Origin: Luteimonas gilva
Lineage (GTDB): Bacteria > Pseudomonadota > Gammaproteobacteria > Xanthomonadales > Xanthomonadaceae
Direction of reading: 5' to 3'
DNA length: 64,000 bases
Assembly: GCF_005239095.1 (NCBI RefSeq)
Contig: NZ_SZUA01000001.1
Span: forward strand, 909,049 to 973,048
Shown here: piece after piece, positions 4,061-41,886 of the stretch
How the letters are laid out: each line of letters starts with the position of its first letter
Position numbering within the stretch: the first letter of the stretch is position 1
Notes under the pieces: model-generated
What the model saw: the letters and a program-made list of their open reading frames with translations, nothing else
Database searches by the model: none
Told to the model about the DNA's origin: nothing
Program-made: the position numbers and the translations under genes

Positions 4061-4897
4061 TCAGCGCCCGGACGACGGCGCGGCGATCCACAACTCGCCG
4101 GCGGCCAAATCCAGCGTAACGACCTTGTCCTTCAAGAACGGCATGCCTAGGTTGCCGTCCAGGATCATGTCCGGCGCGAAGGCCGTGCCCTGCGCGCGCA
4201 GCGCGCCGGAAACGGCGAAGTCCGCTTGCTGCGGCCCCTTTTCTTCGGGATCCAGCCCCAACAGCGCCGCATACGGCTTGGCGACCAGGATCGTGCCGCC
4301 GTTGCCCGTATCCAGCTCCATCCACGCCATGCCGCTGCGCGTCGGGATGCCGACGGATGCGGCCAGCGCCCTGCCCTGCAGTTCGCGCGACAGGCTCACC
4401 GGCAGACTGCGCGCTTGCGCGGTGCGTTCGCGCAGGCTTCCGGGCGATTCGACGATCAGGCGCATGGCCGGAAAATCGATGGTGATCGCGCGCCCGGCGA
4501 ACGCGTCCAGCGCGATCGATCCGTCCAACGGCGCGGCGTCCTTGGGCAGCAGCGAGACGATATCGAACACGCCGGCGACCGGCACACGATAGGTCTGCGC
4601 GCCGAGGCGCAAGGGCACGTCGTCGCAACGCGGCATATCGAGGCGGTCGCCCATCATCCGGTGGCCGCTCAAACGGCCCCAGGGCTTGCAACCGATCTTG
4701 GCGGCGAAGGACGGCGACAGCAGCGTGATGCCGCCCGCCGTATCGAACGTGAACAACCCTTGTCGATCGCCGACCTGCGCGCGCAACGCGACGGTCTTGC
4801 GATACGGCTCCAGCTTGTAGACGGCTTGCGGCGCTGTCGCCGCCGCAGCGGCGAACGGAAGGAAAGCCAATGCAGTCAAGAAACCTTTGCGAACCAT
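4061..4897 (-). CDS. Secreted retropepsin-like aspartyl protease
   Basis: Signal peptide MVRKGFLTALAFLPFAAAAA and two D(T/S)G motifs (FDTAGG, ELDTGNGG). Confidence 0.6.
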   Translation of the reverse strand: MVRKGFLTALAFLPFAAAAATAPQAVYKLEPYRKTVALRAQVGDRQGLFTFDTAGGITLLSPSFAAKIGCKPWGRLSGHRMMGDRLDMPRCDDVPLRLGAQTYRVPVAGVFDIVSLLPKDAAPLDGSIALDAFAGRAITIDFPAMRLIVESPGSLRERTAQARSLPVSLSRELQGRALAASVGIPTRSGMAWMELDTGNGGTILVAKPYAALLGLDPEEKGPQQADFAVSGALRAQGTAFAPDMILDGNLGMPFLKDKVVTLDLAAGELWIAAPSSGR

Positions 4898-6330: not shown

Positions 6331-7226
6331 CCGCGGCGCGCGTAATCGGCGGGCGGGCGGCCGACCAGCGCCTTGAAGTCGCGGATGAAGTGGGCTTGAT
6401 CGAAATAGCCCAAATCCAGCGCCAACTGCGCCCAATCCACTTCGATGCCTTCGGCAAGGCGCTCCAAAGCCTCGTGCAACCGATAACGGTTGATCACCCA
6501 TTTCGGACCGACGCCGACGTATTCGTTGAATAAGCGCTGCAGGCTGCGCGCACCGATGCGCCAGCGCTCGCTCGCCTGTTCGACGCGGCCTATGCTCAAG
6601 TCCGAAGCGATGGCATCGACGATTTCGCCGGCGCGCAGCGCCTCGGGATCGGCAGGCGGCAGACGCGCGAGAAAGAAGCGCTCCGCAGCGGCGACTTGTT
6701 CCGCATCGCTTCGCGCCGCGAACAGCTCCGCTTCCAAAACCGCGGCTTCGGCACCGAACACCGCTGCGCCGTCCAGCGAAGCGTCGCGCAGCGCGGATAG
6801 CGGCTTGTCCAGATAGGCGCGGAAACCGCCGGGCCGGAATTTCACCCCGAACACGCCGCCCCGCCCTTCAAGCACGCGGGTGAAGCGGCCGGTATGCACG
6901 CCCTGGATGCGGGTGAGGCCGGGTTCGAACACCCAATGCACGTTCGGATGCGGCAGGGTCTCGCGCACTTGCGGCGGCGAACCTTCCAGATCCCAGCGCA
7001 CGATCCAGAAGTGCTGCACCACTCCCGCCAAGGGAGGCGCCGGCGCGATCCGGGCGTGGTGGAAAACGCCCGGTCCTGGCGCATGGCGCAGGATTCCGCG
7101 CGCCTTGCCGGGCGCGCGTACGGAATCCGCCGTTTCGGGCGAGGAATCCGCCTGTCGCGTTTTTCCAATATCCGCCTGCACGGTTTTGTTCGAATGCGCG
7201 CAAGGAAGGACATCGGAGTCTGCCAT
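6327..7226 (-). CDS. AraC family transcriptional regulator
   Basis: C-terminal AraC HTH (...LALDLGYFDQAHFIRDFKALVGRPPADYARRG). Start taken at internal MADSD; the longer ORF upstream is low-complexity. Confidence 0.6.
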   Translation of the reverse strand: MADSDVLPCAHSNKTVQADIGKTRQADSSPETADSVRAPGKARGILRHAPGPGVFHHARIAPAPPLAGVVQHFWIVRWDLEGSPPQVRETLPHPNVHWVFEPGLTRIQGVHTGRFTRVLEGRGGVFGVKFRPGGFRAYLDKPLSALRDASLDGAAVFGAEAAVLEAELFAARSDAEQVAAAERFFLARLPPADPEALRAGEIVDAIASDLSIGRVEQASERWRIGARSLQRLFNEYVGVGPKWVINRYRLHEALERLAEGIEVDWAQLALDLGYFDQAHFIRDFKALVGRPPADYARRG

Positions 7227-7716
7227 GAAATCGCGCACCGCCCCCGCTTTCGCCCTCGCCCTCTGCGCGGCCGCTTCTCTAGCGCACGCGGCCGCCCCTT
7301 CGCCGCAGGAGCCTATCGCCATGCACGCCAAAGGCAGTTTCGATATCAAGATGCAGCCGCAGAAACCCGACAATCCGCAAGCCGAGGCCGCGCAATTGGC
7401 CCGTATTTCGCTGGACAAGCGCTTCGCGGGCGCGCTGGAAGCCGTCAGCCAAGGCGAAATGCTCGCGGCCGGCGGCGGGCAATCCAGTGCGTACGTCGCG
7501 CTCGAAAAGATCGACGGCGCGCTGCAGGGCCGCAAAGGCAGCTTCTTCCTGCTCCACAGCGCGACCATGCGGCAAGGCGCGCCGCAAGATTGGTCGGTGA
7601 CCGTGGTGCCGGATTCGGGAACCGGGCAGTTGCAGGGATTGGCCGGAAAAATGCGGATCGACATCGTCGACGGCAAGCATTACTACGACTTCGAATACAC
7701 GCTGCCGGCGCCGTGA
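7225..7716 (+). CDS. DUF3224 domain protein, secreted
   Basis: MKSRTAPAFALALCAAASLAHA signal peptide; ...YYDFEYTLPAP C-terminus typical of DUF3224; divergent from the AraC gene. Confidence 0.6.
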   Translation: MKSRTAPAFALALCAAASLAHAAAPSPQEPIAMHAKGSFDIKMQPQKPDNPQAEAAQLARISLDKRFAGALEAVSQGEMLAAGGGQSSAYVALEKIDGALQGRKGSFFLLHSATMRQGAPQDWSVTVVPDSGTGQLQGLAGKMRIDIVDGKHYYDFEYTLPAP

Positions 7717-7804
7717 TGGCCGCTGCAAAGGGCTCCACCTCGCCGCGACACGGCTTCGGTTAGCCTCGAAGGCCCGCCGATCCGCTTTGCGGCCGGAGCC
7801 CGAC

Positions 7805-8278
7805 ATGGAGCACACGACGCAACAAAAACGCAGCGCGCCTTATCTTCGCCTGCACGCGATGGTCCTGCTGTCCTTCCTGACGATGTACGCCCTGATGTAC
7901 GCGATGGTCGACCGCATCGGCAACGTCCTGCCCAATCTCAACCAGTTCTACATGGCCGGCCTGATGGCGGCGCCGATGGCGATCTTCGAGCTGATCGTGA
8001 TGCGCGGCATGTATCCGAACAGCAAGGCGAACGCGATCCTGGTCGCGGTGAGCCTCGCGGCCATGCTCGCGTTCTGGTTCGGCATCCGCGAGCAAGCCGG
8101 GATCGGCGATCGCCAACTGCTCAAATCGATGATTCCCCACCACACCGGCGCGGTGCTGATGTGCAAGCGCGCGGCATTGAGCGACCCGGACAACCGCGCG
8201 CTGTGCGACGCCATCGTCGCCGGGCAGCAGGCCGAAATCGACCGGATGAAGGCCAAGCTGCGGACGTCCGAACCTTAG
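7805..8278 (+). CDS. DUF305 family protein
   Basis: MIPHHTGAVLMCKRA...HH motif and helix pattern of DUF305. ATG at 7805; the ORF track starts at an upstream TTG. Confidence 0.6.
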   Translation: MEHTTQQKRSAPYLRLHAMVLLSFLTMYALMYAMVDRIGNVLPNLNQFYMAGLMAAPMAIFELIVMRGMYPNSKANAILVAVSLAAMLAFWFGIREQAGIGDRQLLKSMIPHHTGAVLMCKRAALSDPDNRALCDAIVAGQQAEIDRMKAKLRTSEP

Positions 8279-8370
8279 GCCGGTTGGCGCGATTCTTGAA
8301 GCCGGCGCCGCCTTGTGCGCGCGTCGGCTTGGGGGCATATTGCGCGGCGACCTCACCGCCGGGGAACGAC

Positions 8371-8892
8371 ATGGTCTTGGGAATGGGTCCGCTCGTCCTG
8401 CTTCACGTCGCGATCAGTCTCGTGGGAATTTTCTCCGGGTTGATCGTGCTGTTCCACGGGTTGCTGGCTTCGCGCAGATTGCCCGGTTGGACCTCGCTGT
8501 TCTTGTGGTCGACCGTGGCCACCAGCCTGAGCGGTTTCATCCTGCCGGCGACGCGCTTCCTGCCTTCGCACGCGACCGGCGTCCTTTCGATGATCGCGCT
8601 CGCCGTCGCCATTCCCGCGCTGTACAAATTCCGCCTGGCCGGCGGCTGGCGCCGCGCATACGTCGTGAGCGCGGTGCTCTCGCTCTATCTCAACGTGTTC
8701 GTGCTGGTGGTGCAGCTGTTCCTGAAAGTGCCGGCCTTGAAGGCCTTGGCGCCGACCCAGAAGGAGCCGCCGTTTCTGATCGCGCAAGGCGCCGTGCTGC
8801 TGGTTTTCGTCGCACTCTGCTTGTTGGCGTTGAAGCGTTTCCGTCCCGAACCGGCGACGCCTGCCGCTGCCGGAGCCGCGGCGCTGTCCTGA
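8371..8892 (+). CDS. Integral membrane protein (4-5 TM), unknown function
   Basis: Hydrophobic segments MVLGMGPLVLLHVAISLVGIFSGLIVLF... Confidence 0.5.
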   Translation: MVLGMGPLVLLHVAISLVGIFSGLIVLFHGLLASRRLPGWTSLFLWSTVATSLSGFILPATRFLPSHATGVLSMIALAVAIPALYKFRLAGGWRRAYVVSAVLSLYLNVFVLVVQLFLKVPALKALAPTQKEPPFLIAQGAVLLVFVALCLLALKRFRPEPATPAAAGAAALS

Positions 8893-8898
8893 GAACGA

Positions 8899-9354
8899 TC
8901 AAACCAGGCGGTGTTTCTTCAACAACGCCTGCTCGTCGCCGGTAACGTAGGCGAAGATCTTCGGCACGCCTTTGCGCAGCGCCAGGAAATACCGGTTGGC
9001 GAATACGATTCTCACCGGCGCGCCGTCCTTGCGGCGCCGGTATCGCGAATCCCAAGTCACCTTGGCCATCGCGTGCGTGGCGTCCAGCGGCGTGACCTCG
9101 AGCTTGGCGATCTTCATCGAGACGGTGCCGATCTTGCGGTAGTAAGCGAAGCCGCGACCGGGCGCGAACCTGAACCTCAATCCGTTCTTGCCGCCCTGGA
9201 CGCCCGCCGGGCTGGATTCGACGAAGTATTCGGCGAACGAACCGATCACGCCGTCGGTGTCCACGTCGGAAGGATCGTCGAGCGAGCGCTGGAAACGTTC
9301 GGCGTACCGGCGGAAGAAATGCGCGACCTTGCGCTTCATGGCGGCGGGAGTCAT
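8899..9354 (-). CDS. Hypothetical protein
   Basis: 151-aa ORF with ATG start and coding-like composition; no family recognised. Confidence 0.4.
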   Translation of the reverse strand: MTPAAMKRKVAHFFRRYAERFQRSLDDPSDVDTDGVIGSFAEYFVESSPAGVQGGKNGLRFRFAPGRGFAYYRKIGTVSMKIAKLEVTPLDATHAMAKVTWDSRYRRRKDGAPVRIVFANRYFLALRKGVPKIFAYVTGDEQALLKKHRLV

Positions 9355-9420
9355 GCCGGCTCCTGATGCGAACGGGCCGCCAGAATGGGAGAGGCGCGAT
9401 CAACGCGCCGTGACCGCGGA

Positions 9421-9687
9421 TCAGCGCAACTGGCTGTCCTTGCTGCCGCGGCGGTTGTAGCCGCTGGCGGCGCCCTGTTCGCGATCGTGCGCTTCCTGGC
9501 AGCTCACGCACAAACGCACGCCGGGCACGGCCTTGCGCCGCGCTTCGGGAATCGGCGAATCGCATTCTTCGCAGCGTTCCAAGCCGGGCCCGTGGCCGAG
9601 CTGGCTGCGCGCTTTCTTGATGGCGTCCTTCACGGTCGCGTCGATCTGGTCCTGCACCGCGCCGTCGCCCGCCCAACCGGTGGCCAT
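9421..9687 (-). CDS. DksA/TraR family C4-type zinc finger protein
   Basis: CEECDSPIPEARRKAVPGVRLCVSCQ four-cysteine finger. Start at internal ATG (MATGWAGDG). Confidence 0.65.
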   Translation of the reverse strand: MATGWAGDGAVQDQIDATVKDAIKKARSQLGHGPGLERCEECDSPIPEARRKAVPGVRLCVSCQEAHDREQGAASGYNRRGSKDSQLR

Positions 9688-9861
9688 ATTCGCCTCCGTT
9701 CCTTGTTCTAGGCTGCAAGGATAGCTCCGCTGCGATGAATCTGTCGCAAAGGCATCGCCGCGCAAGGCTTAATTGATTCTGTCCGCGGAGAAGGCGCCGT
9801 TTCCCAAGCGCGCCTGCACGCCTGTAGTCTTAGCGAGTCGACCCAAAGCGGAATCCCTCCG

Positions 9862-10161
9862 ATGCCTCGGACCCTCCTGATCTGCGCTCTGCTCGCCCTT
9901 TCCGCTCCGGCCTGGGCCGGTAGTTTCGCCGGCACGTCGGCCGGCGCATCGTCCGCGGGCTCGTCGGCCTCGTCGGGCAGCACCTCGGACGACGACAAGA
10001 TCGTGCTGCAAGCGCGCGACGACGCCGCCAGCTTCGTCGCCAGCGAAGGCCGAATCCGCGGCGCGCAATTGGAAGCCGCGCTGCGCCAATTGCGCGAACG
10101 CCACCCGGCCGCGCGCGAGGCCAGCGACCTGCAGCTCGCGCAGGCCATCCTGGCGCAGTGA
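9862..10161 (+). CDS. DUF2388 family small secreted protein
   Basis: Signal peptide, Ser-rich linker, DDKIVLQARDDAASFVASEGRIRGAQLEAALRQLRE motif. Confidence 0.6.
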   Translation: MPRTLLICALLALSAPAWAGSFAGTSAGASSAGSSASSGSTSDDDKIVLQARDDAASFVASEGRIRGAQLEAALRQLRERHPAAREASDLQLAQAILAQ

Positions 10162-14881: not shown

Positions 14882-15892
14882 ATGCCCCGCGCCATCGAAG
14901 AGATCCGCGCATCCGAACGCACCGTCGCGCTCGAAGACCTGATCGGCGCCGACCGGCCGCTGGTGCTGCGCGGATTGTGCCGCGGCTGGCCCATCGTCGC
15001 CGCCGCGCGCGAATCCGATACGGCCTTCGCCCAAGCCTTGGCCGCTTACGACAACGGTGCGCCGGTCGACACGCTGCGCATGGCGCCCGAAGCCGAAGGC
15101 GTGATCGGCTACAACGAAAATTTCACCGCCTTCAACTACGACCACTATCGCGTGACCGTGACGCAGGTGTTGCAGCGGCTCGCGGCGGCCAGCCGCGAGG
15201 CCCGTCCGCCCGGCATCGCTTTGCAAAGCGCTTCGATCCCGGCTTGCTTGCCCGGCTTCGCGCAAGCGCATCCGTTGCCTTTGCTAGAACCGTCGGTGCA
15301 GCCGCGGCTGTGGATCGGCAACCGGGTCACCACGCCCGCGCATTTCGACGAATACCACAACATCGCGGTAACGGTCGCCGGCCGCCGCCGCTTCACCCTG
15401 TTCCCGATCGAGCAGATCGGCAATCTCTACATCGGCTCGCCCGATTTCGCTCCGACCGGCGCCGCGATCGGCATCGCCCGCCTCGACCGGCCCGACGACC
15501 CGCGCTTCCCGCGCCTGCGCGAAGCGCTGGCGCATGCGCAGCAAGCCGAATTGGAACCCGGCGATGCGATCTACATGCCGCCGCTGTGGTGGCACCACGT
15601 CGAATCGCTGCTTCCGCTCAACGCGCTGGTGAATTATTGGTGGCGGCCGAACCCGCGCGACCGTTACGTGCCGGACACCGCGCTCGGTTGCTTGATGCAT
15701 TGCTTGCTGACCTTCCGCAACCTGCCGCCGGCGCAGCGCGCGGCCTGGCGGACGGTGCTGGACCACTACGTTTTCTCCGAGGATTCGCCGGCGCCGCATC
15801 TGCCGCCGGAGCGGCGCGGCATGTTGGGCGACATGACGCCCGAATTGGCCGCGGAGCTGAAACGCAAGATCCGGCCTTATTTAGACGACTAA
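14882..15892 (+). CDS. Cupin-like (JmjC-type) domain protein
   Basis: HFDEYHNIAV...GDAIYMPPLWWHHVES Fe-binding cupin motifs. Confidence 0.55.
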   Translation: MPRAIEEIRASERTVALEDLIGADRPLVLRGLCRGWPIVAAARESDTAFAQALAAYDNGAPVDTLRMAPEAEGVIGYNENFTAFNYDHYRVTVTQVLQRLAAASREARPPGIALQSASIPACLPGFAQAHPLPLLEPSVQPRLWIGNRVTTPAHFDEYHNIAVTVAGRRRFTLFPIEQIGNLYIGSPDFAPTGAAIGIARLDRPDDPRFPRLREALAHAQQAELEPGDAIYMPPLWWHHVESLLPLNALVNYWWRPNPRDRYVPDTALGCLMHCLLTFRNLPPAQRAAWRTVLDHYVFSEDSPAPHLPPERRGMLGDMTPELAAELKRKIRPYLDD

Positions 15893-31285: not shown

Positions 31286-32716
31286 TCACTCCGGCGCAGT
31301 TTCTTCCGATTTGTCGACGAACTTGCGCAGCAGCTTCTTGCCTTCCGGCGACTGCGCCAAGCCTTCGAGCATGCTGGCGATCGCGGTGCCGCCGTCGGCG
31401 GAGAACAAATCCATCACGCTGGAAATGCCTTTACCCGGCGTGCCGGCGTTGGAAATCACTTTGACGTCGGCGGACTTCAGCGCTTCCGCCTGGGCCATGC
31501 CGACGGCCTGCGCGGCTTCGATGTTGCGGATGCCGAGCAAGTAATTCTGGTACCCCTGATCGCTGCCGATCTTCTCGGCTAGTTTGATCTGCGCATCCAC
31601 CGGCGCCATCAGGATCGCGGTTTCGGCCTGGCCCTTCGCGTTGCCTTCGGCGGCGATGCCTTCGGCGTTGCGCTTGGCGGCTTCCAGTTTGCCTTCGGCG
31701 GTGAGCACGGTCTGCTGCTTGTCGCCTTCGGCCGACACGATCGACACCTGCTTGTTGGCCTCGGCCGACACCACCGCGACCTGCCGGTTCGCCTCGGCCT
31801 GCACGATGGCGACGTCCTTGGCCTGCGCCGCGGCGATGACGGCGGCCTCGCGGTTGATCTCCGCGCCGCGCACGGTTTTCACCTGCAGCACGTCCATGTC
31901 CTTGGCCGCGGTTTCGCGCTGCTGCACCTTCACTTGCTGCGCGGCTTGTTCGTTGGCCACGCCGACGTTCTTGTCCTTCTCGGCGGTACGCAGGCCCACC
32001 TGCTCGGCGGCCAGCTGGCGCGACATTTCGATTTCGCGCTTGGCGGCGATCTCGGCCATTTCGGCCTGGCGGGTGTTGTCGGCCACCACCAGGCGCGATT
32101 CGCGCTCTATGCCCGACGTGCGCTTGGCCATGATGTTCTGGATCACGTCGCTTTCCTTCGCGTCGCGGATATCCATCAACTCGATGTTCTTGATCGCCTC
32201 CACGCCCCACCCGCTCAGCTGCGGCTGCACTTCCTTGGTGAAGGCCTCGCCGAAGCGGCTGCGGTCGAGCATGATCTGGTCGATCTCGTGCCCGGCCAGC
32301 ACGGTGCGCACGGCGCCCTGAACGATGGCGGTCAACTGTTCCTTCAACTCGTCGAACGAGGCCACGCGCTGCGCGGCGGTGTTGGAATCGCTGATGCGGA
32401 AGAAGGCCATCACGTGGACCAGGAACGGGACGCGTTCCTTGTCGTAGGCGGCGTAGTCCGGCAGGTCGATGGCGAAGTTCGACACGGGCAAGGTGACGCG
32501 GGTCAGGCCGATCAGCGGGAAGCGCGACGGCCATTCGTAGTAGGTGTTGCTGTCGAAGCCCTTGCCGTAGGACACGGTGTTCTTGCGGGTCTGGACGATA
32601 TGGACTTCGTTGACCGGCACGACCCGGCGCAGGGCCAGGGCCCAGAAGAACATAATGGCGCCGACGATGGCGGCCGCGGCGACGATGGCGACCAGGATCA
32701 GGGACATGCCGAGCAT
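31286..32716 (-). CDS. Flotillin / SPFH (band 7) family protein, YqiK-like
   Basis: N-terminal TM segment, SPFH domain, long Ala/Gln/Glu-rich coiled coil (AAQAKDVAIVQAEANRQVAVVSAEANKQ...). Confidence 0.75.
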   Translation of the reverse strand: MLGMSLILVAIVAAAAIVGAIMFFWALALRRVVPVNEVHIVQTRKNTVSYGKGFDSNTYYEWPSRFPLIGLTRVTLPVSNFAIDLPDYAAYDKERVPFLVHVMAFFRISDSNTAAQRVASFDELKEQLTAIVQGAVRTVLAGHEIDQIMLDRSRFGEAFTKEVQPQLSGWGVEAIKNIELMDIRDAKESDVIQNIMAKRTSGIERESRLVVADNTRQAEMAEIAAKREIEMSRQLAAEQVGLRTAEKDKNVGVANEQAAQQVKVQQRETAAKDMDVLQVKTVRGAEINREAAVIAAAQAKDVAIVQAEANRQVAVVSAEANKQVSIVSAEGDKQQTVLTAEGKLEAAKRNAEGIAAEGNAKGQAETAILMAPVDAQIKLAEKIGSDQGYQNYLLGIRNIEAAQAVGMAQAEALKSADVKVISNAGTPGKGISSVMDLFSADGGTAIASMLEGLAQSPEGKKLLRKFVDKSEETAPE

Positions 32717-32938
32717 GGGACGGGTCCGGTTGGGTTGGGCAAGGAGGCGCAGTATAGGGGGGCACTCCCGGCCGGGAGCAATCGGGCGGCGGGCGCCTAA
32801 CCGTAGGGCGGAACCGCCGCAGGCGATTCCGCCGATGCCGTGTCGCAAGTTCGACCTACGAGTTCTGAGACGGCTTCTCCGGAACATTCGCAGCGGGTGA
32901 AAGGGCGTGATGTTGGGGTTTTACCCAACCTACGGGCT

Positions 32939-33790
32939 TTACCTAACAGCAGAGGACGCCTCCAATACATACAACTGATTCAACAACAAGAACTCCCTGA
33001 TGTCGTCTTCCAACCTATGCGATAGCTCCGCATGCGCCCTGCGATTTCTAAATGCGGAATAGGCACCTATAAAAAGCGAAGCCCGACCTTTCGCCTCACC
33101 CTCATCGACACCCTCCCAAAAGAGCAGCGAACCATCAACTTGAAATGCCTTTGCAAATAGCTTCGAACCAACGGCTCCAACAAGTCCGCACTTAGAAGCC
33201 AAAATTTGTTCCAATCGACGATATCCGGTCATGATTGCAGCATCCGGCTCTTTCTGAAATCTAATCGCAAGATCCATAATTCTGCTGTCAATAAGACGGA
33301 ATGGAATTAATGGCGGGAAGAACTCGTTAGCGCTCGATTTTTTCTCTATAGCGTCTGTCACATCGTATATATAGTCGTACCATCGAGTCGGCCTGATCGC
33401 TTTAGACTCTTCGATGATCTGGATGTCCTTATTAGTCATGGCGCTCCTGCCAAGGCGGTCAAGGATGCCTCTAGAAACATCGACCTCTTCTACAGCGACC
33501 CCGAATTCATGCAGAGCCAGAAGAGCAGCCGCGAGCCCCCTTGGTCCCTCGCCAGAATACCCAGAAGTAAATCCGTCCTTGATCGCTATGTAGTCGGTCT
33601 CATCCAACCGCAACAGGAAAGAATGCTGATGCCCGCAGGTCAACAAAGTAGCCCCAGTAATCCAAGCGTCGCACTGAATAAGCCTGATGATCGCAATGAC
33701 ACATGCTTGAGTAATACCAGAAAGGCCGTGATATTCGATTCCCGCCAGATCGTTCTCAGCAGTCATTTTCAGCGCCCCATAAAAGGCCAC
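32939..33790 (-). CDS. Low-GC island gene: HEPN-domain protein, Ymh/TIGR02391-like C-terminus
   Basis: C-terminal ...ASLFIGAYSAFRNRRAHAELSHRLEDDIREFLLLNQLYVLE carries an Rx4H HEPN motif. N-terminal 130-aa region unassigned. GC about 45%. GTG at 33790 or ATG at 33766. Confidence 0.5.
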   Translation of the reverse strand: MAFYGALKMTAENDLAGIEYHGLSGITQACVIAIIRLIQCDAWITGATLLTCGHQHSFLLRLDETDYIAIKDGFTSGYSGEGPRGLAAALLALHEFGVAVEEVDVSRGILDRLGRSAMTNKDIQIIEESKAIRPTRWYDYIYDVTDAIEKKSSANEFFPPLIPFRLIDSRIMDLAIRFQKEPDAAIMTGYRRLEQILASKCGLVGAVGSKLFAKAFQVDGSLLFWEGVDEGEAKGRASLFIGAYSAFRNRRAHAELSHRLEDDIREFLLLNQLYVLEASSAVR

Positions 33791-33996
33791 ATCTATCGCA
33801 CATTAACAGCGATGTCAGCTAGTGAAAAACGGGGTCAGAGACCATTACTAATAACGGTCCCTGACCCCGTTCTGCCGGGGTGAAACCCCAACGTCGCACG
33901 CTCACATCAGCGACGATCTCGACAGGAAAGCAGGGCTCCGGACATGGCGCAGCTCGTGACAGATGGTGATGTTGGGGTTTCACCCCAACCTACGAG

Positions 33997-34968
33997 CTAA
34001 ACTCTTAAGACGTCGACCCCAAGCGACAACATAGAATTCGTCTCGACATCGTCCACAAAATCCCTCCATGTACCCTGCTCAGTCCGCCTAGAACAATATG
34101 AGCATGCCATCGATATAAACGATGTCGCGACATCCCCTAGATCGATCAGAAACTGATCGATCTCAGACTGGTGACTCTCGCCGTACGATAGAAAAATAGA
34201 ATCCCGAAAACTTGCCTTACCTACATATCTTGCAGCCTCAACCAAAAAATTCACCTGCTGCGTGTCCAGATAGCGGTCGCGAAGTTCGCGCGCACGTCTA
34301 GTTCTGAAATCATGAACGCCTAAAGCAAGAAATTCAGGTGTTTCGCGCACTGTATGTTCCGCACGCTCCCGCTCGAACTTAACCGTACCGTGCAAGTACG
34401 AAACCAGCCCACCCCACGCCTCCGACGCACTAGATGGCGTTCGACTTAAATCATGTAAATTATTTTTTCGATACCGCTCGATCTCTTGCTCTGAGTCGGT
34501 TTTTACAAGCGTCGATATAAACGGCGAAAAAGGTGGAAAGATAAGATTGTGCGCAACAATATCTTCCTGCCACGCATAAGCTAACACCTCTATCCCATCT
34601 ACGCGCCGGCCACTCGCTGCTGCGACCATAGCAGCGGCAGCGGAATGGATACAGTGGTACCACGTAGAAATTGCTGGCCGACACACATCGTACCCATTCT
34701 CCGAGTTGGTTATTGTTATGAGCCCCGCCAAATGATTAAAAGCAAGAAAAACGTTCTCGAACACGGCTGTGTCTGCAGCACTATCTACTGGTCTCCGCGC
34801 AACATTGGAGTAGAAACTATGCAATGTCGCAGCCTCAAAGCTCTTATCGTCAACGAGCAGAGCGAGAGCTCTCATCCAATTCACAGTACCGTAAAATGCG
34901 AAATGTGGCGCTGGCTGGTCCAGCTCAAACAAGCGATTTAACAACCACCTTTGCGCACCTCCTCTCAT
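33997..34968 (-). CDS. Low-GC island gene: hypothetical protein (323 aa), no recognisable domain
   Basis: Strong AGGAGGAG RBS 8 nt upstream of the ATG; AT-rich codon usage unlike the host. Confidence 0.5.
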   Translation of the reverse strand: MRGGAQRWLLNRLFELDQPAPHFAFYGTVNWMRALALLVDDKSFEAATLHSFYSNVARRPVDSAADTAVFENVFLAFNHLAGLITITNSENGYDVCRPAISTWYHCIHSAAAAMVAAASGRRVDGIEVLAYAWQEDIVAHNLIFPPFSPFISTLVKTDSEQEIERYRKNNLHDLSRTPSSASEAWGGLVSYLHGTVKFERERAEHTVRETPEFLALGVHDFRTRRARELRDRYLDTQQVNFLVEAARYVGKASFRDSIFLSYGESHQSEIDQFLIDLGDVATSFISMACSYCSRRTEQGTWRDFVDDVETNSMLSLGVDVLRV

Positions 34969-34995
34969 ATCAGCTCCTCCTGCATGACCAGCACA

Positions 34996-37278
34996 TTAGC
35001 GATACCACTCAGTTAAATCTCTTATATGTTGACTGGCATCGGAGACGGACGGCTTAAAGACAATTTCCTTTTCGCTGATTGTTTGGATGTATGGCAGGAG
35101 CTCTGCAACGTCTTCCGGCAGAAACCCGTACCTCATTAATAAAACCTGCATGGCATCGTTTGTACCGAACCGCATTAGTTCGATTAACTTTAAAGCTCTA
35201 ATATCGTTACTAAATGCATAATAGATCTTGAAAGCCGCGGTAAATACGTCGTTCAATCCAAACGAAATCACCTGGTCCAGGTAATCATATGTGTCAAAGA
35301 CCACCGCGTCATAATTAACGTTTTTCGCGAGCGTCCCCTTAGGAAAAAGCGGAAATAAATTTTCTAAACTGGCGTCTGGCAATGCATTAGCTTTCTGCGC
35401 GAACATAGCTTCTCCGGCGTGACGCTGGTCGCGACGCGCAATTCGGCTGAAGCGAAGACCAACAATCTCACTAAACGATCGGCCTTGAAATGTCTGGATC
35501 ATTAGACCTATTGCCGTATGGAATATCGCCTGCTCGCCAGGCCTAAGGTGCCTATCCAACGACGCTTCGTAAATGACCCGAAGATTCTCTTCGACTTTCA
35601 AACGAGCACGCCGGTTCGAACCACCCCTCAAAGACCGCGATAATTCGTAGCCATTTGCGTAAACAATATCGAGTACCGCGCTTGCCGCGCTGCGTACTTC
35701 TAGACGTTCGAGACGCTCTGCTTTAGATTGCGGGATGTGCAATTGTTCGTCGAAAGTACCTTCACGGATCGCCTCAAGCAGTTCACTCATATCAAAGTCA
35801 GCCGGAAGCTCATCAGCATCGATCAAGGAAGCTTCAGATAGAACAAAGCTATGCTCCAACCTTTCAGCAAGCATTTGTGGATTCTTCGTGTAGACATAAC
35901 CGAAATCAAATTTCTGAGCGTCAGTTAGCCGGCCTGCTCGGCCGATTAGATTCTTGAACGCTAGTGATTTTGCAGAATCATCCTTACCTAATAACCGCGA
36001 AGTATCCAACCAAACCACATCGAATGGCATGTTGACGCCTTGCACTAATGTACTAGTTGCAAAACAGATTCGCGCATGCCCCTGGCGAACAAATTCCTCG
36101 ATTAGGAAACGAACTTCTAATGGAACAGAGCCGTGGTGAATAACAACACCCTTTCTAAGCAGCTCCACCATTTTCGAATAATGCCCACGCTGGTCCGCAC
36201 CTAAGAGATGCTCTATGGCAGAAACGATTTCGATTGCCTTTGGATGCGCGACCTCATCAAATCGATTGATAAATTCACTGAACCCTTCCAAGAAGGACTG
36301 GTTATAGATCGAATTCTTTGTTACATAAACGAGAACTGAGTGCCCCGAACTTAAAGCAAATTCTGCAAAATCCCCCTCGAACGTAAGGCAGTTTTTTAGT
36401 AGATGGCCACCCTCCTCATATGGCGAAAAGTAATAATCACTGCCGTTCGAGTGACCAAAAACGAAGACTTTCCCGACAGCGCCATAAGGATATGTTCTTG
36501 CAAAAGCACGGTTTTCTGGCAGATGGTGCTTCGAAAATTGTGCTTCTGGGTTATCGACAAATGGATGCGCAAAAACCAACTTCGCATTAGGAAATGCGCC
36601 GTTAACGCGACGAATCAGAACGTCGAACACCACACCCCGTTCCGCCTCCTCTGATATTTGGGCTTCGTCGAAGAAAAACGTCGTCACTGCAAGCTGCTCA
36701 CGCATTTCGAATAAATCTCGCGCCCGCTCCGGGGTCAGAACAAATATTCTTCGGAGTGGTCGCTGAGTAAAAACGTGATCGACAAACGGCATAATCATCA
36801 CATTCTTGTCGCTCGCAAATGCCAGTCGCATGACAGACAAATACTCGGCAATTAGCGCGCGAGACGGCACAACTACGACGGCATCACCATTCTCACTGGC
36901 AATAAAGTCGCGAATCGAATAGGACTTCCCCGCGCTTGTTGGGGCGGATATTGAAATAAATTGATTCTCGCCGAGAGCTCGCCGCACGCTTGCCTGCACT
37001 GGCGTCAATACGACCCCACTCTCTAACCGGTGCGCCTCACCCATCTGGCGGATAAGAAATGCGTAAAGACTGTTTGGCGACGCGACCTTGTAAAAGAGCC
37101 CCATTGCAGCAAGGATTTTTTCCTCCAATTGCTCAAAGGCCTCACTATGAAATACCTTATAAAGGCTGAGTGTCTCCAGAAGCCGCTGCGTATCTGGGCC
37201 ATGCGTATGAAGCCGCGCCAACAATTCCGCCAAGGTCGTGGACGGCATATTGTCGGCCATAATTTCTCTAAGCGTCAT
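34996..37278 (-). CDS. Low-GC island gene: SF2 DExx-box helicase, Hachiman HamB-like
   Basis: Walker A APTSAGKSY, motif II FFFDEAQ, motif VI-like ATSTLVQGVNMP. About 760 aa. Overlaps the upstream small gene by 11-20 nt. Confidence 0.65.
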   Translation of the reverse strand: MTLREIMADNMPSTTLAELLARLHTHGPDTQRLLETLSLYKVFHSEAFEQLEEKILAAMGLFYKVASPNSLYAFLIRQMGEAHRLESGVVLTPVQASVRRALGENQFISISAPTSAGKSYSIRDFIASENGDAVVVVPSRALIAEYLSVMRLAFASDKNVMIMPFVDHVFTQRPLRRIFVLTPERARDLFEMREQLAVTTFFFDEAQISEEAERGVVFDVLIRRVNGAFPNAKLVFAHPFVDNPEAQFSKHHLPENRAFARTYPYGAVGKVFVFGHSNGSDYYFSPYEEGGHLLKNCLTFEGDFAEFALSSGHSVLVYVTKNSIYNQSFLEGFSEFINRFDEVAHPKAIEIVSAIEHLLGADQRGHYSKMVELLRKGVVIHHGSVPLEVRFLIEEFVRQGHARICFATSTLVQGVNMPFDVVWLDTSRLLGKDDSAKSLAFKNLIGRAGRLTDAQKFDFGYVYTKNPQMLAERLEHSFVLSEASLIDADELPADFDMSELLEAIREGTFDEQLHIPQSKAERLERLEVRSAASAVLDIVYANGYELSRSLRGGSNRRARLKVEENLRVIYEASLDRHLRPGEQAIFHTAIGLMIQTFQGRSFSEIVGLRFSRIARRDQRHAGEAMFAQKANALPDASLENLFPLFPKGTLAKNVNYDAVVFDTYDYLDQVISFGLNDVFTAAFKIYYAFSNDIRALKLIELMRFGTNDAMQVLLMRYGFLPEDVAELLPYIQTISEKEIVFKPSVSDASQHIRDLTEWYR

Positions 37279-37999
37279 AGACGACACCGACCAAATAAAT
37301 CTGGCTTATTTTGTGGGTGCCGGCCAAAGCTTTGGCTTTCGTTATAGCGTTCTTGATAACAATATCCGGATTGGCAGCATTGATAGAAAATGCAGCCACA
37401 ACCCCGAAATCTTCGTTATCAAGGTTTTGTATCGCCTTTAATGGAACTAGCTTTTCAAGGTGCGTGCGATCTCTGAAATGCTTTTCTGCTTCTAGGAAAC
37501 TGGAAATCTGACTGATTGCCGCACCGTGAGGACTCTTCTGCGATGAATATTTTGCTTCGCCGAAATGGACTCGTTCAGCAGGGCAAACTGTATGAAAGTC
37601 GAAACCCTCATTCTGCTTAGCTTGTGGTTTCCACAATTCCGCCAACGGAACTTCATAGTGACTAAATACCTGATTTAGCGCCCTAGCAGCCCCCATCGAT
37701 ACCATTAGTTCGCCAAACTCTTCTTGGATGTCACTCGGCGGTATCAAGGATGCAGCTTTGAAAATATCGATTAATAGCGCCGCTGTCTCCGCTACGGTCT
37801 TTTCGTACGCGCGTCGCGCCCCCTTGTCTAGGTGCGCCATCCAGGAGGTGTCAACCACAATCTGGGTAAGTTCATGCGCGAGCTTACCTACATCGGATAC
37901 GGAAACCCTGCAGGCACGAATATTGTCGACTGCCAAGGCAGGCAATTCGCAGTGATCACATCCCCATGCAATATCGCTTATAACCCCAGTTGTACTCAT
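37268..37999 (-). CDS. Low-GC island gene: small protein with PD-(D/E)xK-like motif, candidate HamA (DUF1837-like) partner of the helicase
   Basis: GFDFHT...FGEAKYSS resembles a D...ExK nuclease core. About 244 aa from the first ATG. Position and overlap with the helicase match hamA-hamB architecture. Confidence 0.4.
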   Translation of the reverse strand: MSTTGVISDIAWGCDHCELPALAVDNIRACRVSVSDVGKLAHELTQIVVDTSWMAHLDKGARRAYEKTVAETAALLIDIFKAASLIPPSDIQEEFGELMVSMGAARALNQVFSHYEVPLAELWKPQAKQNEGFDFHTVCPAERVHFGEAKYSSQKSPHGAAISQISSFLEAEKHFRDRTHLEKLVPLKAIQNLDNEDFGVVAAFSINAANPDIVIKNAITKAKALAGTHKISQIYLVGVVYDA

Positions 38000-38220
38000 T
38001 GCGCTCCAGCCCCCCGACCAATGCCGCAATTGCCTTCGATATCCGTCGAATGCAGTGTAATTCTCTGAGATTCCGGCCGGAAGGTAGGACGAAAGGCGAA
38101 CGGATGCAAACAAGCCGCCCTGTAGGCGGCTTGAGAAAATTCTTAAAAGCAGAGTCCCGAGGTCTTGCCCTCACCCGATCCCATCTTCCGCAAGCGGATG
38201 ATGGCTTTGGACATAGCAGG

Positions 38221-41200
38221 TTACATATTCCGCCGATACTCCCCACCCACGTCATAAAGGGCATGACTAATCTGCCCCAACGAATGCGTCTTAACCGCCT
38301 CCATCAACGCCGCGAACACGTTCTTGCGGTCGCGGGCGGTGTTCTGCAGGTAGGCCAGGCCGTGGCCGTCGTGGACGAAATTCTGCTCCTCGTCCGAGCC
38401 GGCCAGATGACCGTGTGAGGTCTCGCCGGACGGGGCCAGGGCGTTGCGGGATTGCTGCCAGTTGGCGACGTTGGCGATCTGCTGGCCTTTCTCTTCCTCG
38501 GTCGAGCGGATCAGTTCGATCTCGGTAGCGATCTCGCCGCCGTGTTCCTTGGGCAGGAAGGTATTCACGCCCACCAGCGGCAGGCTGCCGTCGTGCTTCT
38601 TGTGCTCGTAGTACAGGCTCTCTTCCTGGATCTTGCCGCGCTGGTACATGGTGTCCATCGCACCGAGCACGCCGCCGCGTTCGCTGATCGCTTCGAATTC
38701 CTTGTACACCGCCTCTTCCACCACGTCGGTGAGGTATTCCACCGCGAAGCTGCCCTGCCACGGGTTCTCGTTGAAGTTGAGGCCCAGTTCCTTGTTGATG
38801 ATCATCTGGATCGCCACCGCGCGGCGCACCGATTCTTCGGTGGGCGTGGTGATCGCCTCGTCGTAGGCGTTGGTGTGCAGGCTGTTGCAATTGTCGAACA
38901 GCGCGTACAGCGCCTGCAGCGTGGTGCGGATGTCGTTGAACTGGATTTCCTGCGCGTGCAGGCTGCGGCCGCTGGTCTGGATGTGGTACTTCATCATCTG
39001 CGAGCGCTCGTTCGCGCCGTAGCGCTCGCGCATGGCGCGGGCCCAGATGCGTCGCGCGACGCGGCCGATGACCGTGTATTCCGGATCCATGCCGTTGCTG
39101 AAGAAGAACGACAGGTTGGGCGCGAAGTCGTCGATCTTCATGCCGCGCGCCAGGTAGTACTCGACGATGGTGAAGCCGTTACTCAGGGTGAAAGCGAGCT
39201 GGCTGATCGGGTTCGCGCCCGCTTCGGCGATGTGGTAGCCGGAGATCGACACCGAATAGAAGTTGCGCACCTTCTGGTCGACGAAGTACTGCTGGATGTC
39301 GCCCATCATCCGCAGCGCGAATTCGGTGCTGAAGATGCAGGTGTTCTGCGCCTGGTCTTCCTTCAGGATGTCGGCCTGCACCGTGCCGCGCACGGTGGCC
39401 AGGGTTTCGGCCTTGATCCTGGCGTAGGTGTCGGCGTCGACCATCTGGTCGCCGGACACGCCCAGCAAACCCAAACCCAAGCCGTTGTTGGTGGGCGGCA
39501 ACTCGCCGTGGTACTGCGGACGCGCGCGGCCTTCGAACAATTTCGCCAGCTTCTTCTCCGCTTCCGCCCAGCGCTGCGGATCTTCCTTCAAATACTTTTC
39601 GACTTGCTGGTCGATGGCGGTGTTCATGAACATCGCCAGGATCATCGGCGCCGGGCCGTTGATGGTCATCGAAACGGACGTGGTCGGCGCGCACAGGTCG
39701 AAGCCGGAGTACAGCTTCTTCATGTCGTCCAGCGTGGGGATGTTGACGCCGGAGTTGCCGATCTTGCCGTAGATGTCCGGGCGCGGCGCCGGGTCTTCGC
39801 CGTACAGCGTAACGCTGTCAAAAGCGGTGGACAGGCGCGCGGCGGGCTGGCCGACGCTGAGGTAATGGAAGCGGCGGTTGGTGCGCTCGGGCGTGCCTTC
39901 GCCGGCGAACATGCGGATGGGATCTTCGCCGGTGCGGCGGTAGGGATACACGCCGCCGGTGTAGGGATAGCTGCCCGGCAGGTTTTCCTTGCCCAGGAAG
40001 GTCAGCAGCTCGCCCCAGCTCTTGTAGGTGGGCGCGGCGATCTTCGGCACTTTCTGGTGGCTGAGCGATTCGCGGTAGTTTTCGACCTTGATCGCCTTGC
40101 CGCGGACTTCGTATTCGGTGAATTCGTCGGTGATGGACTTCAGGCGTTGCGGCCAGTCGCGCAGCAGCTTCAGGTTTTCGCTGGTGAGGGATTGGACGGC
40201 GTCGTTGTAGCGTTGGCGCAAAGTCAGCAGCGAGCGGTCGACCGCTTGAGCCCCCTCTCCCGCCTGCGGGAGAGGGTTGGGGTGAGGGTGCGCCGCGACC
40301 TGGCTGCCCTCACCCGCGCTTTCGGCGCGACCTCTCCCGCTCGCGGGAGAGGTTTGGAGTGCGTCGGCGCCGTAAAGATCGAGTTGCTTAGGCAATTGCT
40401 CGTCGCCGAGTTCGTGCAACGCCTGCCAGAACGCCTGCGCGCGATCCGCGGCTTCGGCCTGCTTCTCGATGGAGGCGTTGATCGCCCTGCCCTGTTCGGC
40501 GATTTCGGCCAGATAGCGGACGCGGGCGCCGGGGATCAGCACGGTGGCGCGCGGTTCTTTCAGCGAGGTGTCGAGCTTCGGCGTCCAAGTTTCCGCCGGC
40601 AGATGCAATTTCTCGCGCAGCAGTCGCGCCAGGTTGACGAACATCCAGCTGACGCCGGGGTCGTTGAACTGGCTGGCGATGGTCGGATAGACCGGGACGT
40701 CTTCGTCCTTGGTCTTGAACGCGGTGCGGTTGCGCTTCCACTGCTTACGGATGTCGCGCAAGGCGTCTTCGGCGCCGCGCTTGTCGTACTTGTTCAGCAC
40801 GATCAGCTCGGCGTAGTCGATCATGTCGATCTTCTCAAGCTGGCTGGCCGCGCCGTAGTCGCTGGTCATCACATACATGGGGAAATCGACCAGGTCGACG
40901 ATTTCCGAATCGGATTGGCCGATGCCGGCGGTTTCCACGATCACCAGGTCGTAGCCCAGGCCCTTCAGGAACGCGATGCAATCCTTCAGCACGGCGTTGG
41001 TGGCCACGTTCTGGCGGCGGGTGGCCATCGAACGCATGTAGACGCGATGGCTGCGCAGCGAGTTCATGCGGATGCGGTCGCCGAGCAGCGCGCCGCCGGT
41101 GCGGCGGCGGGTCGGGTCGACCGAGATCACCGCGATCTTCATCTGCGGGAAGCTGGCCAGGAAGCGGTTAAGCAGTTCGTCGGTGACCGACGACTTGCCG

Positions 41201-41886
41201 GCGCCGCCGGTGCCGGTGATGCCGACCACCGGCGTCTTGCCGCCGGCCAGTTGCCATTCCTTGCGCAGCTTGGAGAGTTCGGCTTCGGTGTAGTCGCCGT
41301 CTTCGATGGCGGACATGACTCGACCGATCGAGATTTCGTCTTGTAGGGTGGGCTTCAGCCCACCTTTTGCGGCCTCTGGCGAATTAGCATCGTCCGGGTT
41401 ACGGCGGGCTGAAGCCCGCCCTACGTCTTCACGGGCTTTTTTGGCGCGCACAACCACGTCTTCGATCATTTCCACCAAGCCCATCTTCATGCCGTCGTTG
41501 GGGTGGTAGATGCGTTCGACGCCGTAGGCTTCCAGTTCGCGGATCTCTTCGGGCGTGATCGTCCCGCCGCCGCCGCCGAACACGCGGATGTGCGAAGCGC
41601 CGCGTTCCTTCAGCATGTCGACCATGTATTTGAAGTATTCGACGTGGCCGCCCTGGTAGCTGGACAGGGCGATGGCGTCGGCGTCTTCCTGCAGCGCGGC
41701 GCGGACCACGTCCTCGACCGAGCGGTTGTGGCCCAGGTGGATGACCTCGGCGCCTTGCGACTGGATCAGCCGGCGCATGATGTTGATCGCCGCGTCGTGG
41801 CCGTCGAACAGGCTGGCGGCGGTGACGAAACGCAGCGGGCTGCGGTCGGCGTCGGTCTGGGGGAGGCTGGCGGCGGGAGTGCTCAT
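38221..41886 (-). CDS. icmF: Fused isobutyryl-CoA mutase (B12-binding domain, MeaB-like GTPase, mutase catalytic domain)
   Basis: N-terminal B12 domain ([10 protein letters not shown]), G-protein ([12 protein letters not shown]), C-terminal methylmalonyl-CoA-mutase-like barrel; 1221 aa. Contains in-frame repeat-element insertions at about 41342-41425 and 40248-40358. Confidence 0.8.
40248..40358. repeat. Composite hairpin element, family C (CCTCTCCCGCNNGCGGGAGAGG x2 plus GGGTGAGGG...CCCTCACCC), inside icmF coding sequence
   Basis: Three consecutive hairpins. A single-hairpin copy CCCCTCTCCCGCTTGCGGGAGAGGGG lies intergenic at 28105-28135. In icmF they encode ...[37 protein letters not shown]... 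in frame. Confidence 0.7.

Follow-up and report, generated by a model that had tools for sequence, protein, structure and literature searches.

The stretch of DNA considered here is a 64,000-nucleotide (nt) window of the Luteimonas gilva genome (contig NZ_SZUA01000001.1, positions 909,049 to 973,048 of the forward strand), a source to which an exact protein match also points, in which an island of four candidate anti-phage defence genes separates a gene for an SPFH/Band 7 ('flotillin-like') protein from icmF. The content of guanine plus cytosine (GC) is 46.7–50.6% in the 1-kb bins from 33001 to 38000, all other bins of the window lying at 60–70%; over its length the island (32939–38113) has 48.8% GC as against 65.8% for the remainder of the window. 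The same contrast is seen in GC at third codon positions (GC3), which is 0.48–0.51 across the four genes of the island and reaches 0.88 and 0.87 in its two neighbours, the flotillin gene and icmF respectively. Together, bins and genes confirm the compositional island that had been proposed from the letters of the DNA (the original prediction), its figures of 45% versus 68% having captured the low-GC contrast while slightly overstating it. The clean edges that were part of the same proposal are also borne out. On the flotillin side, GC drops within ca 100 nt, at 32850–32950, and homology with relatives ends at ca 32850 (blastn to L036, L002 and L033; L numbers are our labels for the sequences compared), while on the icmF side GC recovers between 38000 and 38300, and a junction alignment of six genomes places the end of homology exactly at the icmF stop codon (38221–38223). 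The last 70 nt of icmF look low in GC, yet they are conserved coding sequence. The notion that the island gave icmF a new 3′ end, in the style of an att-site duplication, was rejected, since the homology of the relatives reaches the stop codon.

All four open reading frames (ORFs) of the island lie on the minus strand, which agrees with the co-orientation described originally. Strong ribosome-binding sites of the AGGAGG type had been ascribed to the genes as a group; such a site is present at gene 3 only, gene 1 having a GGAG and the start of the helicase gene overlapping the gene before it. The operon promoter presumably lies in the interval 38000–38220, which also contains a terminator-like hairpin, AAGCCGCC-n5-GGCGGCTT, at ca 38110–38130; a scan for the sigma-70 consensus found no promoter upstream of either of the two gene modules described below, this interval included. 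The features of the locus are collected in Table 1.

Table 1. Features of the low-GC island of L. gilva and of its flanks, in window coordinates (aa, amino acids; REP, repetitive extragenic palindromic sequence; REPIN, REP doublet forming a hairpin; SF2, superfamily 2).
Feature	Position	Strand	Description and evidence
SPFH/Band 7 ('flotillin-like') gene	31286..32887	-	Pfam Band_7, E 7e-17; GC3 0.88
Island edge, flotillin side	32877..32938	.	62-nt direct-repeat copy with degenerate REP hairpin 32907-32934; repeat families D1 and D7, motif search, blastn-short
Gene 4, Ymh/TIGR02391-type HEPN protein	32939..33790	-	283 aa (NCBI 275 aa); PF09509 29.5 bits, cut-off 25
Intrinsic terminator	33828..33871	-	stem ca 20-22 bp + UUUUU; inverted repeat I3, sequence
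REPIN-like element, two inverted REP units	33874..33998	.	starts directly after gene 3 stop codon
Gene 3, all-helical HEPN-fold protein	33997..34968	-	323 aa; AGGAGG ribosome-binding site; start 27 nt after hamB
Gene 2, HamB SF2 helicase	34996..37287	-	763 aa; PADLOC HamB1 PDLC00176, E 7.8e-52
Gene 1, HamA-like PD-(D/E)xK nuclease	37268..37999	-	243 aa; ATG 37999, GGAG upstream
Island edge, icmF side	38000..38220	-	221 nt from icmF stop to hamA start; sequence and junction alignment
icmF	38221..41886	-	fused isobutyryl-CoA mutase/MeaB GTPase; NCBIfam NF045497, 1651.8 bits

The helicase that had been recognised in the island can be identified as HamB. The PADLOC search of the island proteins, one of the checks proposed for the prediction, returned a HamB model for gene 2, with 14 further HamB models matching below an E value of 1e-20, and among sequences of the Protein Data Bank (PDB) the protein matches 9wh1_B at 8.7e-27 and the HamB chain 8vx9_B at 1.8e-12. 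Moreover, motif I (APTSAGKS at residues 115–122, with GKS at 120–122) and motif II (DEAQ at 207–210) are both intact, such that gene 2 combines HamB-specific profile matches with complete ATPase motifs, as is required of a HamB. Along almost all of its length the protein also aligns with phrog_6819 ('Holliday junction branch migration helicase'; E 2e-106), so that close relatives of HamB exist among the genes of phages or prophages. The hamB gene of one Pseudoxanthomonas assembly (L059, 8725–11006) is broken into ORFs of 318 and 442 aa; it is intact, at 760 aa, in L060 and L061.

Gene 1, described originally as encoding a small nuclease-like protein, can be refined to a nuclease of the HamA fold and the PD-(D/E)xK type. 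The catalytic residues D134, E148 and K150 are invariant in the family (40 homologues), and the 3′ end of the gene overlaps hamB by 20 nt. A D...ExK triad of this kind is essential in HamA of S. thermophilus (PMC13064477). In the type I Hachiman reference, a HamA nuclease of the DUF1837 family is combined with the HamB helicase, the structures being those of E. coli ECOR31 and K-12 AbpAB (8vx9/8vxy, 8zue). From this reference the L. gilva locus differs in two respects: a third gene is predicted to be co-transcribed, and gene 1 has no detectable similarity to DUF1837, to the HamA of PADLOC or to the HamA of the PDB, its identity to HamA being 6–9% in the structural alignment. Indeed, gene 1 had no matches in Pfam, PADLOC (the HamA models included), NCBIfam or PHROG; DUF1837 (PF08878) gave no Pfam match at E ≤ 0.1 for the window protein, nor at E ≤ 1 for 40 homologues and 10 remote members; the family profile found nothing among PDB sequences, HamA included; and Foldseek with gene 1 gave nothing significant. 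A sequence bridge from the family to DUF1837 was sought in the 50 members and with the profile against PDB sequences, and was discarded when neither supplied one. One UniRef record labels a 54%-identical homologue 'DUF1837 domain-containing', the same protein having no Pfam match at E ≤ 1. In other words, DUF1837 is not detectable by sequence in gene 1.

The gene 1 family, a compact one, makes up 244 of the 50%-identity clusters in a set of 1.84 billion representatives and is present in Pseudomonas aeruginosa, Vibrio, Stenotrophomonas and Xanthomonas; tblastn of gene 1 against phage and plasmid collections found no match. In every context examined the homologue is paired with HamB. Beyond the window, the pair occurs in L055, L057/58, L059–61, L064, L065–67, L068 and L151, with the hamA-like gene directly upstream of hamB and the two co-inherited. 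It is because of this constant pairing, the invariant D134/E148/K150 and the 20-nt overlap that genes 1 and 2 are read, at the level of sequence, as a Hachiman system in which HamA has moved beyond what sequence comparison can recognise. What this reading brings to light is a gap in detection, in that the tested models of Pfam and PADLOC v2 miss a Hachiman-type nuclease, and loci of this kind would be scored as orphan helicases. The public annotation of gene 1, with a product of 222 aa at NCBI, appears to be N-terminally truncated: the family is ca 244 aa long and its invariant D9, W12 and G13 precede the NCBI start, which is why the start is placed at ATG 37999, and the upstream GGAG agrees. 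The longest ORF of gene 1 begins at TTG 38113, within the terminator-like hairpin after icmF.

By analogy with the HamAB mechanism, as given in PMC12278908 and PMC11914072, HamB would keep the nuclease in restraint as it surveys DNA; damage done to DNA by phage, or the presence of free DNA ends, would bring about ATP-dependent activation of the helicase, whereupon the nuclease would degrade DNA and the infection would be aborted.

The product of gene 3, which had been left as an orphan, has the four-helix HEPN fold. Its family had no matches among the Pfam, NCBIfam, PADLOC and PHROG libraries searched, and the protein itself matched neither PD-T7-3 of PADLOC nor any abortive-infection (Abi) model; its conserved stretch is R247-x3-K251-x3-R255-D256. 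A tandem HEPN arrangement arising by internal duplication was considered and rejected (hhalign of the halves, E 0.74). A look-up of the exact gene 3 sequence in an assembly index returned no record. The hamA-like gene, hamB and a HEPN-fold gene, the last of them 27–43 nt behind hamB, recur as a trio in L055, L057/58, L064 (Lysobacter antibioticus) and L068 as in the window, and the identities of all three proteins to the window copies fall in parallel across these relatives. From the sequences we conclude that gene 3 would have been recruited once into this hamAB lineage, and it is most likely an added effector or regulator rather than an obligate subunit.

Several observations weigh against so close a connection. 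The Rx4–6H motif is lacking, there being no invariant or near-invariant His in 40 homologues, and ribonuclease (RNase) activity is doubtful because this catalytic His is absent; lacking that His, the HEPN protein may instead serve in regulation, bind nucleotides or act as an effector of an atypical kind. In 79 of 80 metagenome loci the family stands by itself (28 of the 80 have more than 3.2 kb upstream, enough to reveal hamB if present), and its stand-alone homologues have no conserved partner, the largest neighbour cluster being found at five of 82 loci. Relatives of the hamAB pair are themselves variable: those in P. aeruginosa consist of two genes only, without gene 3, and a Pseudoxanthomonas relative (L059/L061) has DUF3223 in third position in place of gene 3. 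Since the family is mostly stand-alone and the hamAB relatives vary, the evidence for a functional link between gene 3 and hamAB is that of neighbourhood only.

The stand-alone habit of the family and the two-gene relatives in P. aeruginosa can be taken to mean that gene 3 is a module in its own right, a lone defence or toxin gene, beside an ordinary two-gene Hachiman system, as would also accord with its solo homologues in Synechococcus and Desulfovibrio and with the established occurrence of single-gene HEPN defence, for example DARNA/PD-T7-3 (bioRxiv 10.64898/2026.02.22.705581). Such independence is a plausible alternative which falls somewhat short of being favoured, for the adjacency is held in all five lineages that carry the trio despite protein divergence to 54–73% identity, no terminator lies between hamB and gene 3, a strong one being found only after gene 3, and the hamAB-linked copies form the subset of the family at ≥ 53% identity, which is consistent with a single recruitment. 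The sole hamAB-bearing locus of the 80 is that of the closest gene 3 relative, at 55% identity. The opposite view, that the trio is a distinct Hachiman subtype with a DUF1837-unlike HamA and a His-less HEPN protein as third subunit, is rather unlikely. Were it true, the sensing of DNA damage by HamB would be coupled to a second, non-DNase output, and defence censuses based on the tested Pfam/PADLOC v2 models would count too few systems of this family.

In this regard it is instructive to compare the recruited gene 3 with the accessory genes of known Hachiman systems. Type II Hachiman, in which hamAB is joined by HamC/DUF3223 (PMC8565338), likewise has three genes with a small accessory gene beside hamAB; it differs in that the third gene of L. 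gilva encodes a HEPN-fold protein. No island protein contains DUF3223, and with its absence from gene 3 the accessory position is therefore held by an unrelated protein and not by HamC. The extended type III-B Hachiman of Streptococcus, where hamAB is clustered with PezAT or abiJ (PMC13064477), shares with L. gilva the physical joining of hamAB to a toxin-type module and, AbiJ being of the HEPN family, therefore offers a precedent for a Hachiman–HEPN pairing. The two differ in HamA/HamB clade, HEPN family, gene order (downstream in L. gilva) and taxa, and the Streptococcus PezAT module is an expression modulator that is dispensable for defence (PMC13064477). The slot after hamB thus varies among relatives between nothing, DUF3223 and a HEPN-fold gene, which supports the idea of modular add-ons to HamAB. 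At the same time a widespread, stand-alone, His-less HEPN-fold family, hitherto uncharacterised, is brought to notice. Among its surroundings, a DUF4160/DUF2442 pair is found near a stand-alone homologue in Synechococcus (L062, 1910–2570), and a pair of the same kind lies between icmF and the cassette in a Rhodanobacter metagenome-assembled genome (MAG; L151, 3803–4331); HigB-like toxins occur near family members in L063 and L065.

Gene 4, the HEPN protein of the original prediction, belongs to the Ymh/PF09509 family: its profile score is above the cut-off and it has an Rx4H motif, RNRRAH, at residues 248–253. Its score against NCBIfam TIGR02391, 19 bits, is below the cut-off of 39.45, and NCBI still names the product a TIGR02391 family protein. 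All listed homologues carry PF09509, the closest non-self one being 51% identical, and they are solo genes that lie near NACHT/helicase genes or within an integrase-bearing element. Members of the Ymh family are found solo in defence neighbourhoods (Anantharaman et al. 2013, PMC3710099), a pattern that gene 4 fits. It resembles the solo HEPN Abi proteins (Ymh/PF09509, AbiJ/AbiD-type, DARNA/PD-T7-3) in having PF09509, Rx4H, an extra N-terminal domain and a solo position, and the gene 3 family resembles them in being a solo HEPN-fold gene; both genes are unlike them in having no PADLOC PD-T7-3 or Abi match, and gene 3 further in having no catalytic His. From its motif and family the Ymh protein is probably an Abi-type RNase.

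The arrangement of the DNA between genes 3 and 4 sets the latter apart. After the stop codon of gene 3 there follow first a REPIN-like element, next a hairpin with UUUUU, and last gene 4. The RNA fold of this region (33800–34000, 201 nt) has an energy of −96.7 kcal/mol, with z = −7.6. Gene 4 is itself bracketed by 62-nt direct repeats (32877–32938 and 33936–33998) that are 76–79% identical, the first of which starts a few nt after the Ymh stop codon. With a terminator, a REPIN and its own repeats around gene 4, the island therefore consists of an operon of three genes and, apart from it, one further gene. Moreover, gene 4 is missing from all of the related cassettes (L055, L057/58, L064 and L068), and as far as sequence can tell it is a separately acquired stand-alone module. 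The view of the island as a single four-gene defence island accordingly needs amending: its defence content stands, its unity does not. That the whole 5.3 kb was acquired at once, its four genes being the components of one defence system, might be argued from their common orientation, contiguity, similar GC and GC3, and the host sequence on both sides; against the missing Ymh gene in the related cassettes, the terminator of 20–22 bp and REPIN that part it from the operon, its own repeats and solo homologues, and a nearest homologue at 51% where the other three genes have theirs at 72–81%, this single-unit origin is very improbable.

The site at which these two modules lie is used by other defence genes in relatives. 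A genome scan with the flotillin protein showed icmF and the flotillin gene close together in L002 and L033 only; the adjacency that was to be looked for elsewhere thus holds in a few relatives and is not general. In L002 a pair of genes, PDC-M01A/PtuA-like (Septu-like) and PDC-M01B, occupies the interval from icmF to the flotillin gene; in L033, PDC-S33 (RelA/SpoT-like) comes directly after icmF; and in L036, which is closest in its flotillin (93%), PDC-S28 comes directly before the flotillin gene, the cargo being low in GC in each case. In other words, conserved flanks enclose defence cargo that differs between relatives, as in a defence hotspot flanked by core genes, and the fixed landmark of this hotspot is the icmF 3′ end. 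The PDC-M01A/PtuA-like ATPase of L002 (6670–8207) is split into overlapping ORFs of 132 and 380 aa, which jointly cover the 510-position profile; a frameshift, decay to a pseudogene or faulty assembly might account for the split. In L036, the closest Luteimonas relative, the DNA upstream of the flotillin gene contains two low-GC blocks (1–2500 and 7000–10000), separated by ca 4.5 kb of high-GC genes, one block with PDC-S28 (an 862-aa DinG-like helicase) and the other with a transglutaminase-like protein and a 243-aa orphan beside a REPIN.

Five lineages (the window, L055, L057/58, L068 and the Rhodanobacter MAG L151) have the Hachiman cassette itself at a distance of 0.1–3.8 kb downstream of icmF, and in all of them its GC3 is 0.46–0.62 and that of icmF 0.79–0.90. 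The cassette is not a recent arrival unique to the L. gilva genome. Such persistence of three genes at one place and one composition is what would be expected of an old vertical resident of the icmF locus, its low GC being kept by selection. The relationships of the cassettes, however, do not follow those of their hosts, the latter being judged from 190 C-terminal residues of IcmF beside the junction, which are all that the contigs share. L055 and L068 have IcmF C-termini that are 96.8% identical and cassettes that are only 62% (HamA) and 68% (HamB) identical; the cassette closest to that of the window is in L055 (HamA/HamB ca 81%) though the IcmF identity there is 84.5%; the nearest IcmF relative, L002 (90%), carries the Septu-like system at the icmF site; and in Lysobacter antibioticus (L064) the cassette is at another, unrelated locus, not next to icmF. 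Vertical residence is accordingly improbable. Shared genes in the same place, with the same GC and vertical descent, would have told against the horizontal acquisition of a defence island; the sharing does extend to three of the four genes, in place and at low GC (L055, L057/58, L068 and L151), but their descent is not vertical, and both this discordance with the hosts and the alternative cargo at the site support horizontal acquisition.

How the cargo came to be exchanged is bound up with what the locus lacks. As had been noted at the outset, no integrase, tRNA or transposase was found: there is no tRNA in the 64-kb window and no integrase or transposase domain in the ten flanking ORFs (ca 24.0–47.7 kb), which have high GC3 and ordinary host functions. 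An Rfam scan of the whole window gave no family matches, and no direct repeats pair the two ends of the island, the sole long direct repeat bracketing gene 4 only. The marks of a classical integrative genomic island, namely a recombinase, a tRNA/att target and direct repeats around the whole, are thus absent, and because no recombinase is present, recombination in the flanks is the most economical route. Exchange of cargo by homologous recombination in the conserved flanks is most likely, and that we infer it from the absence of other machinery is itself a point to be set against the account as a whole.

The repeats at the ends of the cargo are of the REP type. The exact 23-mer GTAGGTTGGGGTGAAACCCCAAC, which consists of a GTAG head and a palindrome in the style of REP/SMAG, lies at 33971–33993 on the minus strand and forms the REPIN-like element with a degenerate arm at 33874–33892; the degenerate hairpin of the flotillin-side edge is the only other copy in the 64 kb. 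All REP copies of the window are therefore at the island by position, one a few nt past the stop codon of gene 3 and one past that of gene 4, in the same orientation. The REPIN-like element is 86% identical over 122–125 nt in L036. The 23-mer is common to three different Lysobacteraceae genomes (window, L002 and L036), being found in L002 just after the cargo (9102–9124) and five times in L036, partly away from cargo (repeat sites 20–185, 4228–4339 and 15572–15694). REP units, in short, mark cargo ends here but are not specific to cargo, and a role for them in recombination is a lead only.

It might be supposed from these palindromes that a dedicated mobile element moved the block, either as integron-like attC cassettes or by transposition involving REP/REPIN and a REP-associated tyrosine transposase (RAYT). 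They are imperfect, ca 110–125 nt long, and follow immediately upon the stop codons of gene 3 and gene 4, both facing the same way; their ends bear a loose resemblance to attC R''/R' cores, and a REP is at the cargo edge in L002 too. The unit is, however, a REP-type palindrome of 23 nt, exact and headed by GTAG, and it occurs in L036 also away from low-GC cargo (4316–4338 and 15572–15693); the window yielded neither an integron integrase nor a RAYT or any other recombinase, and the icmF-side junction is without a repeat. The attC reading in particular was rejected in favour of REP/REPIN, given the exact 23-mer outside cargo in L036 and the lack of intI. REPs are not known to carry multi-kb cargo, and movement by such an element is extremely unlikely. 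A gene for a Y1_Tnp (RAYT-type) transposase lies ca 6 kb from the cassette in Lysobacter antibioticus (L064, 13008–13703).

The overall picture, which is held to be likely, is of a composite anti-phage island, made up of a divergent Hachiman operon and a separate Ymh HEPN gene, in a recombination hotspot downstream of icmF in Lysobacterales. Its first module (37999 to 33997) would be the hamA-like–hamB–HEPN operon, ended by the terminator at 33828–33871, in which the third, co-transcribed gene would have come from an otherwise stand-alone HEPN-fold family to serve as an added effector or regulator. The second module (33790 to 32939) would be the independently acquired Ymh HEPN gene, whose product has an intact Rx4H motif and an extra N-terminal domain and is probably an abortive-infection RNase. 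Cargo would enter and leave by homologous recombination in the flanking genes, possibly aided by the REP/REPIN units at its ends. Integrase-free chromosomal defence hotspots between core genes are described for Pseudomonas, Vibrio and E. coli, and the L. gilva locus is like them in its conserved flanks, its sharply bounded low-GC cargo, the differing defence systems of relatives and the lack of a recombinase; it is unlike them in having REP/REPIN units at the cargo ends. The literature searched contained no description of a Lysobacterales hotspot at the 3′ end of icmF. The findings extend known patterns, with a hotspot that is typical but apparently undescribed, and overturn no current understanding; the icmF 3′ end could be mined in Lysobacterales for new defence systems.

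With regard to the flanking genes, the IcmF of the window is 90% identical to that of L002, 85% to that of L057 and 81% to that of L151. The icmF of this locus is not the IcmF/TssM of type VI secretion, and the name could wrongly suggest a secretion-system locus. The longest ORF of the flotillin gene (ATG 32887) runs into the REP-derived repeat; because homology with relatives stops at ca 32852, the true start is probably near 32848, e.g. TTG 32848, some 13 codons downstream.

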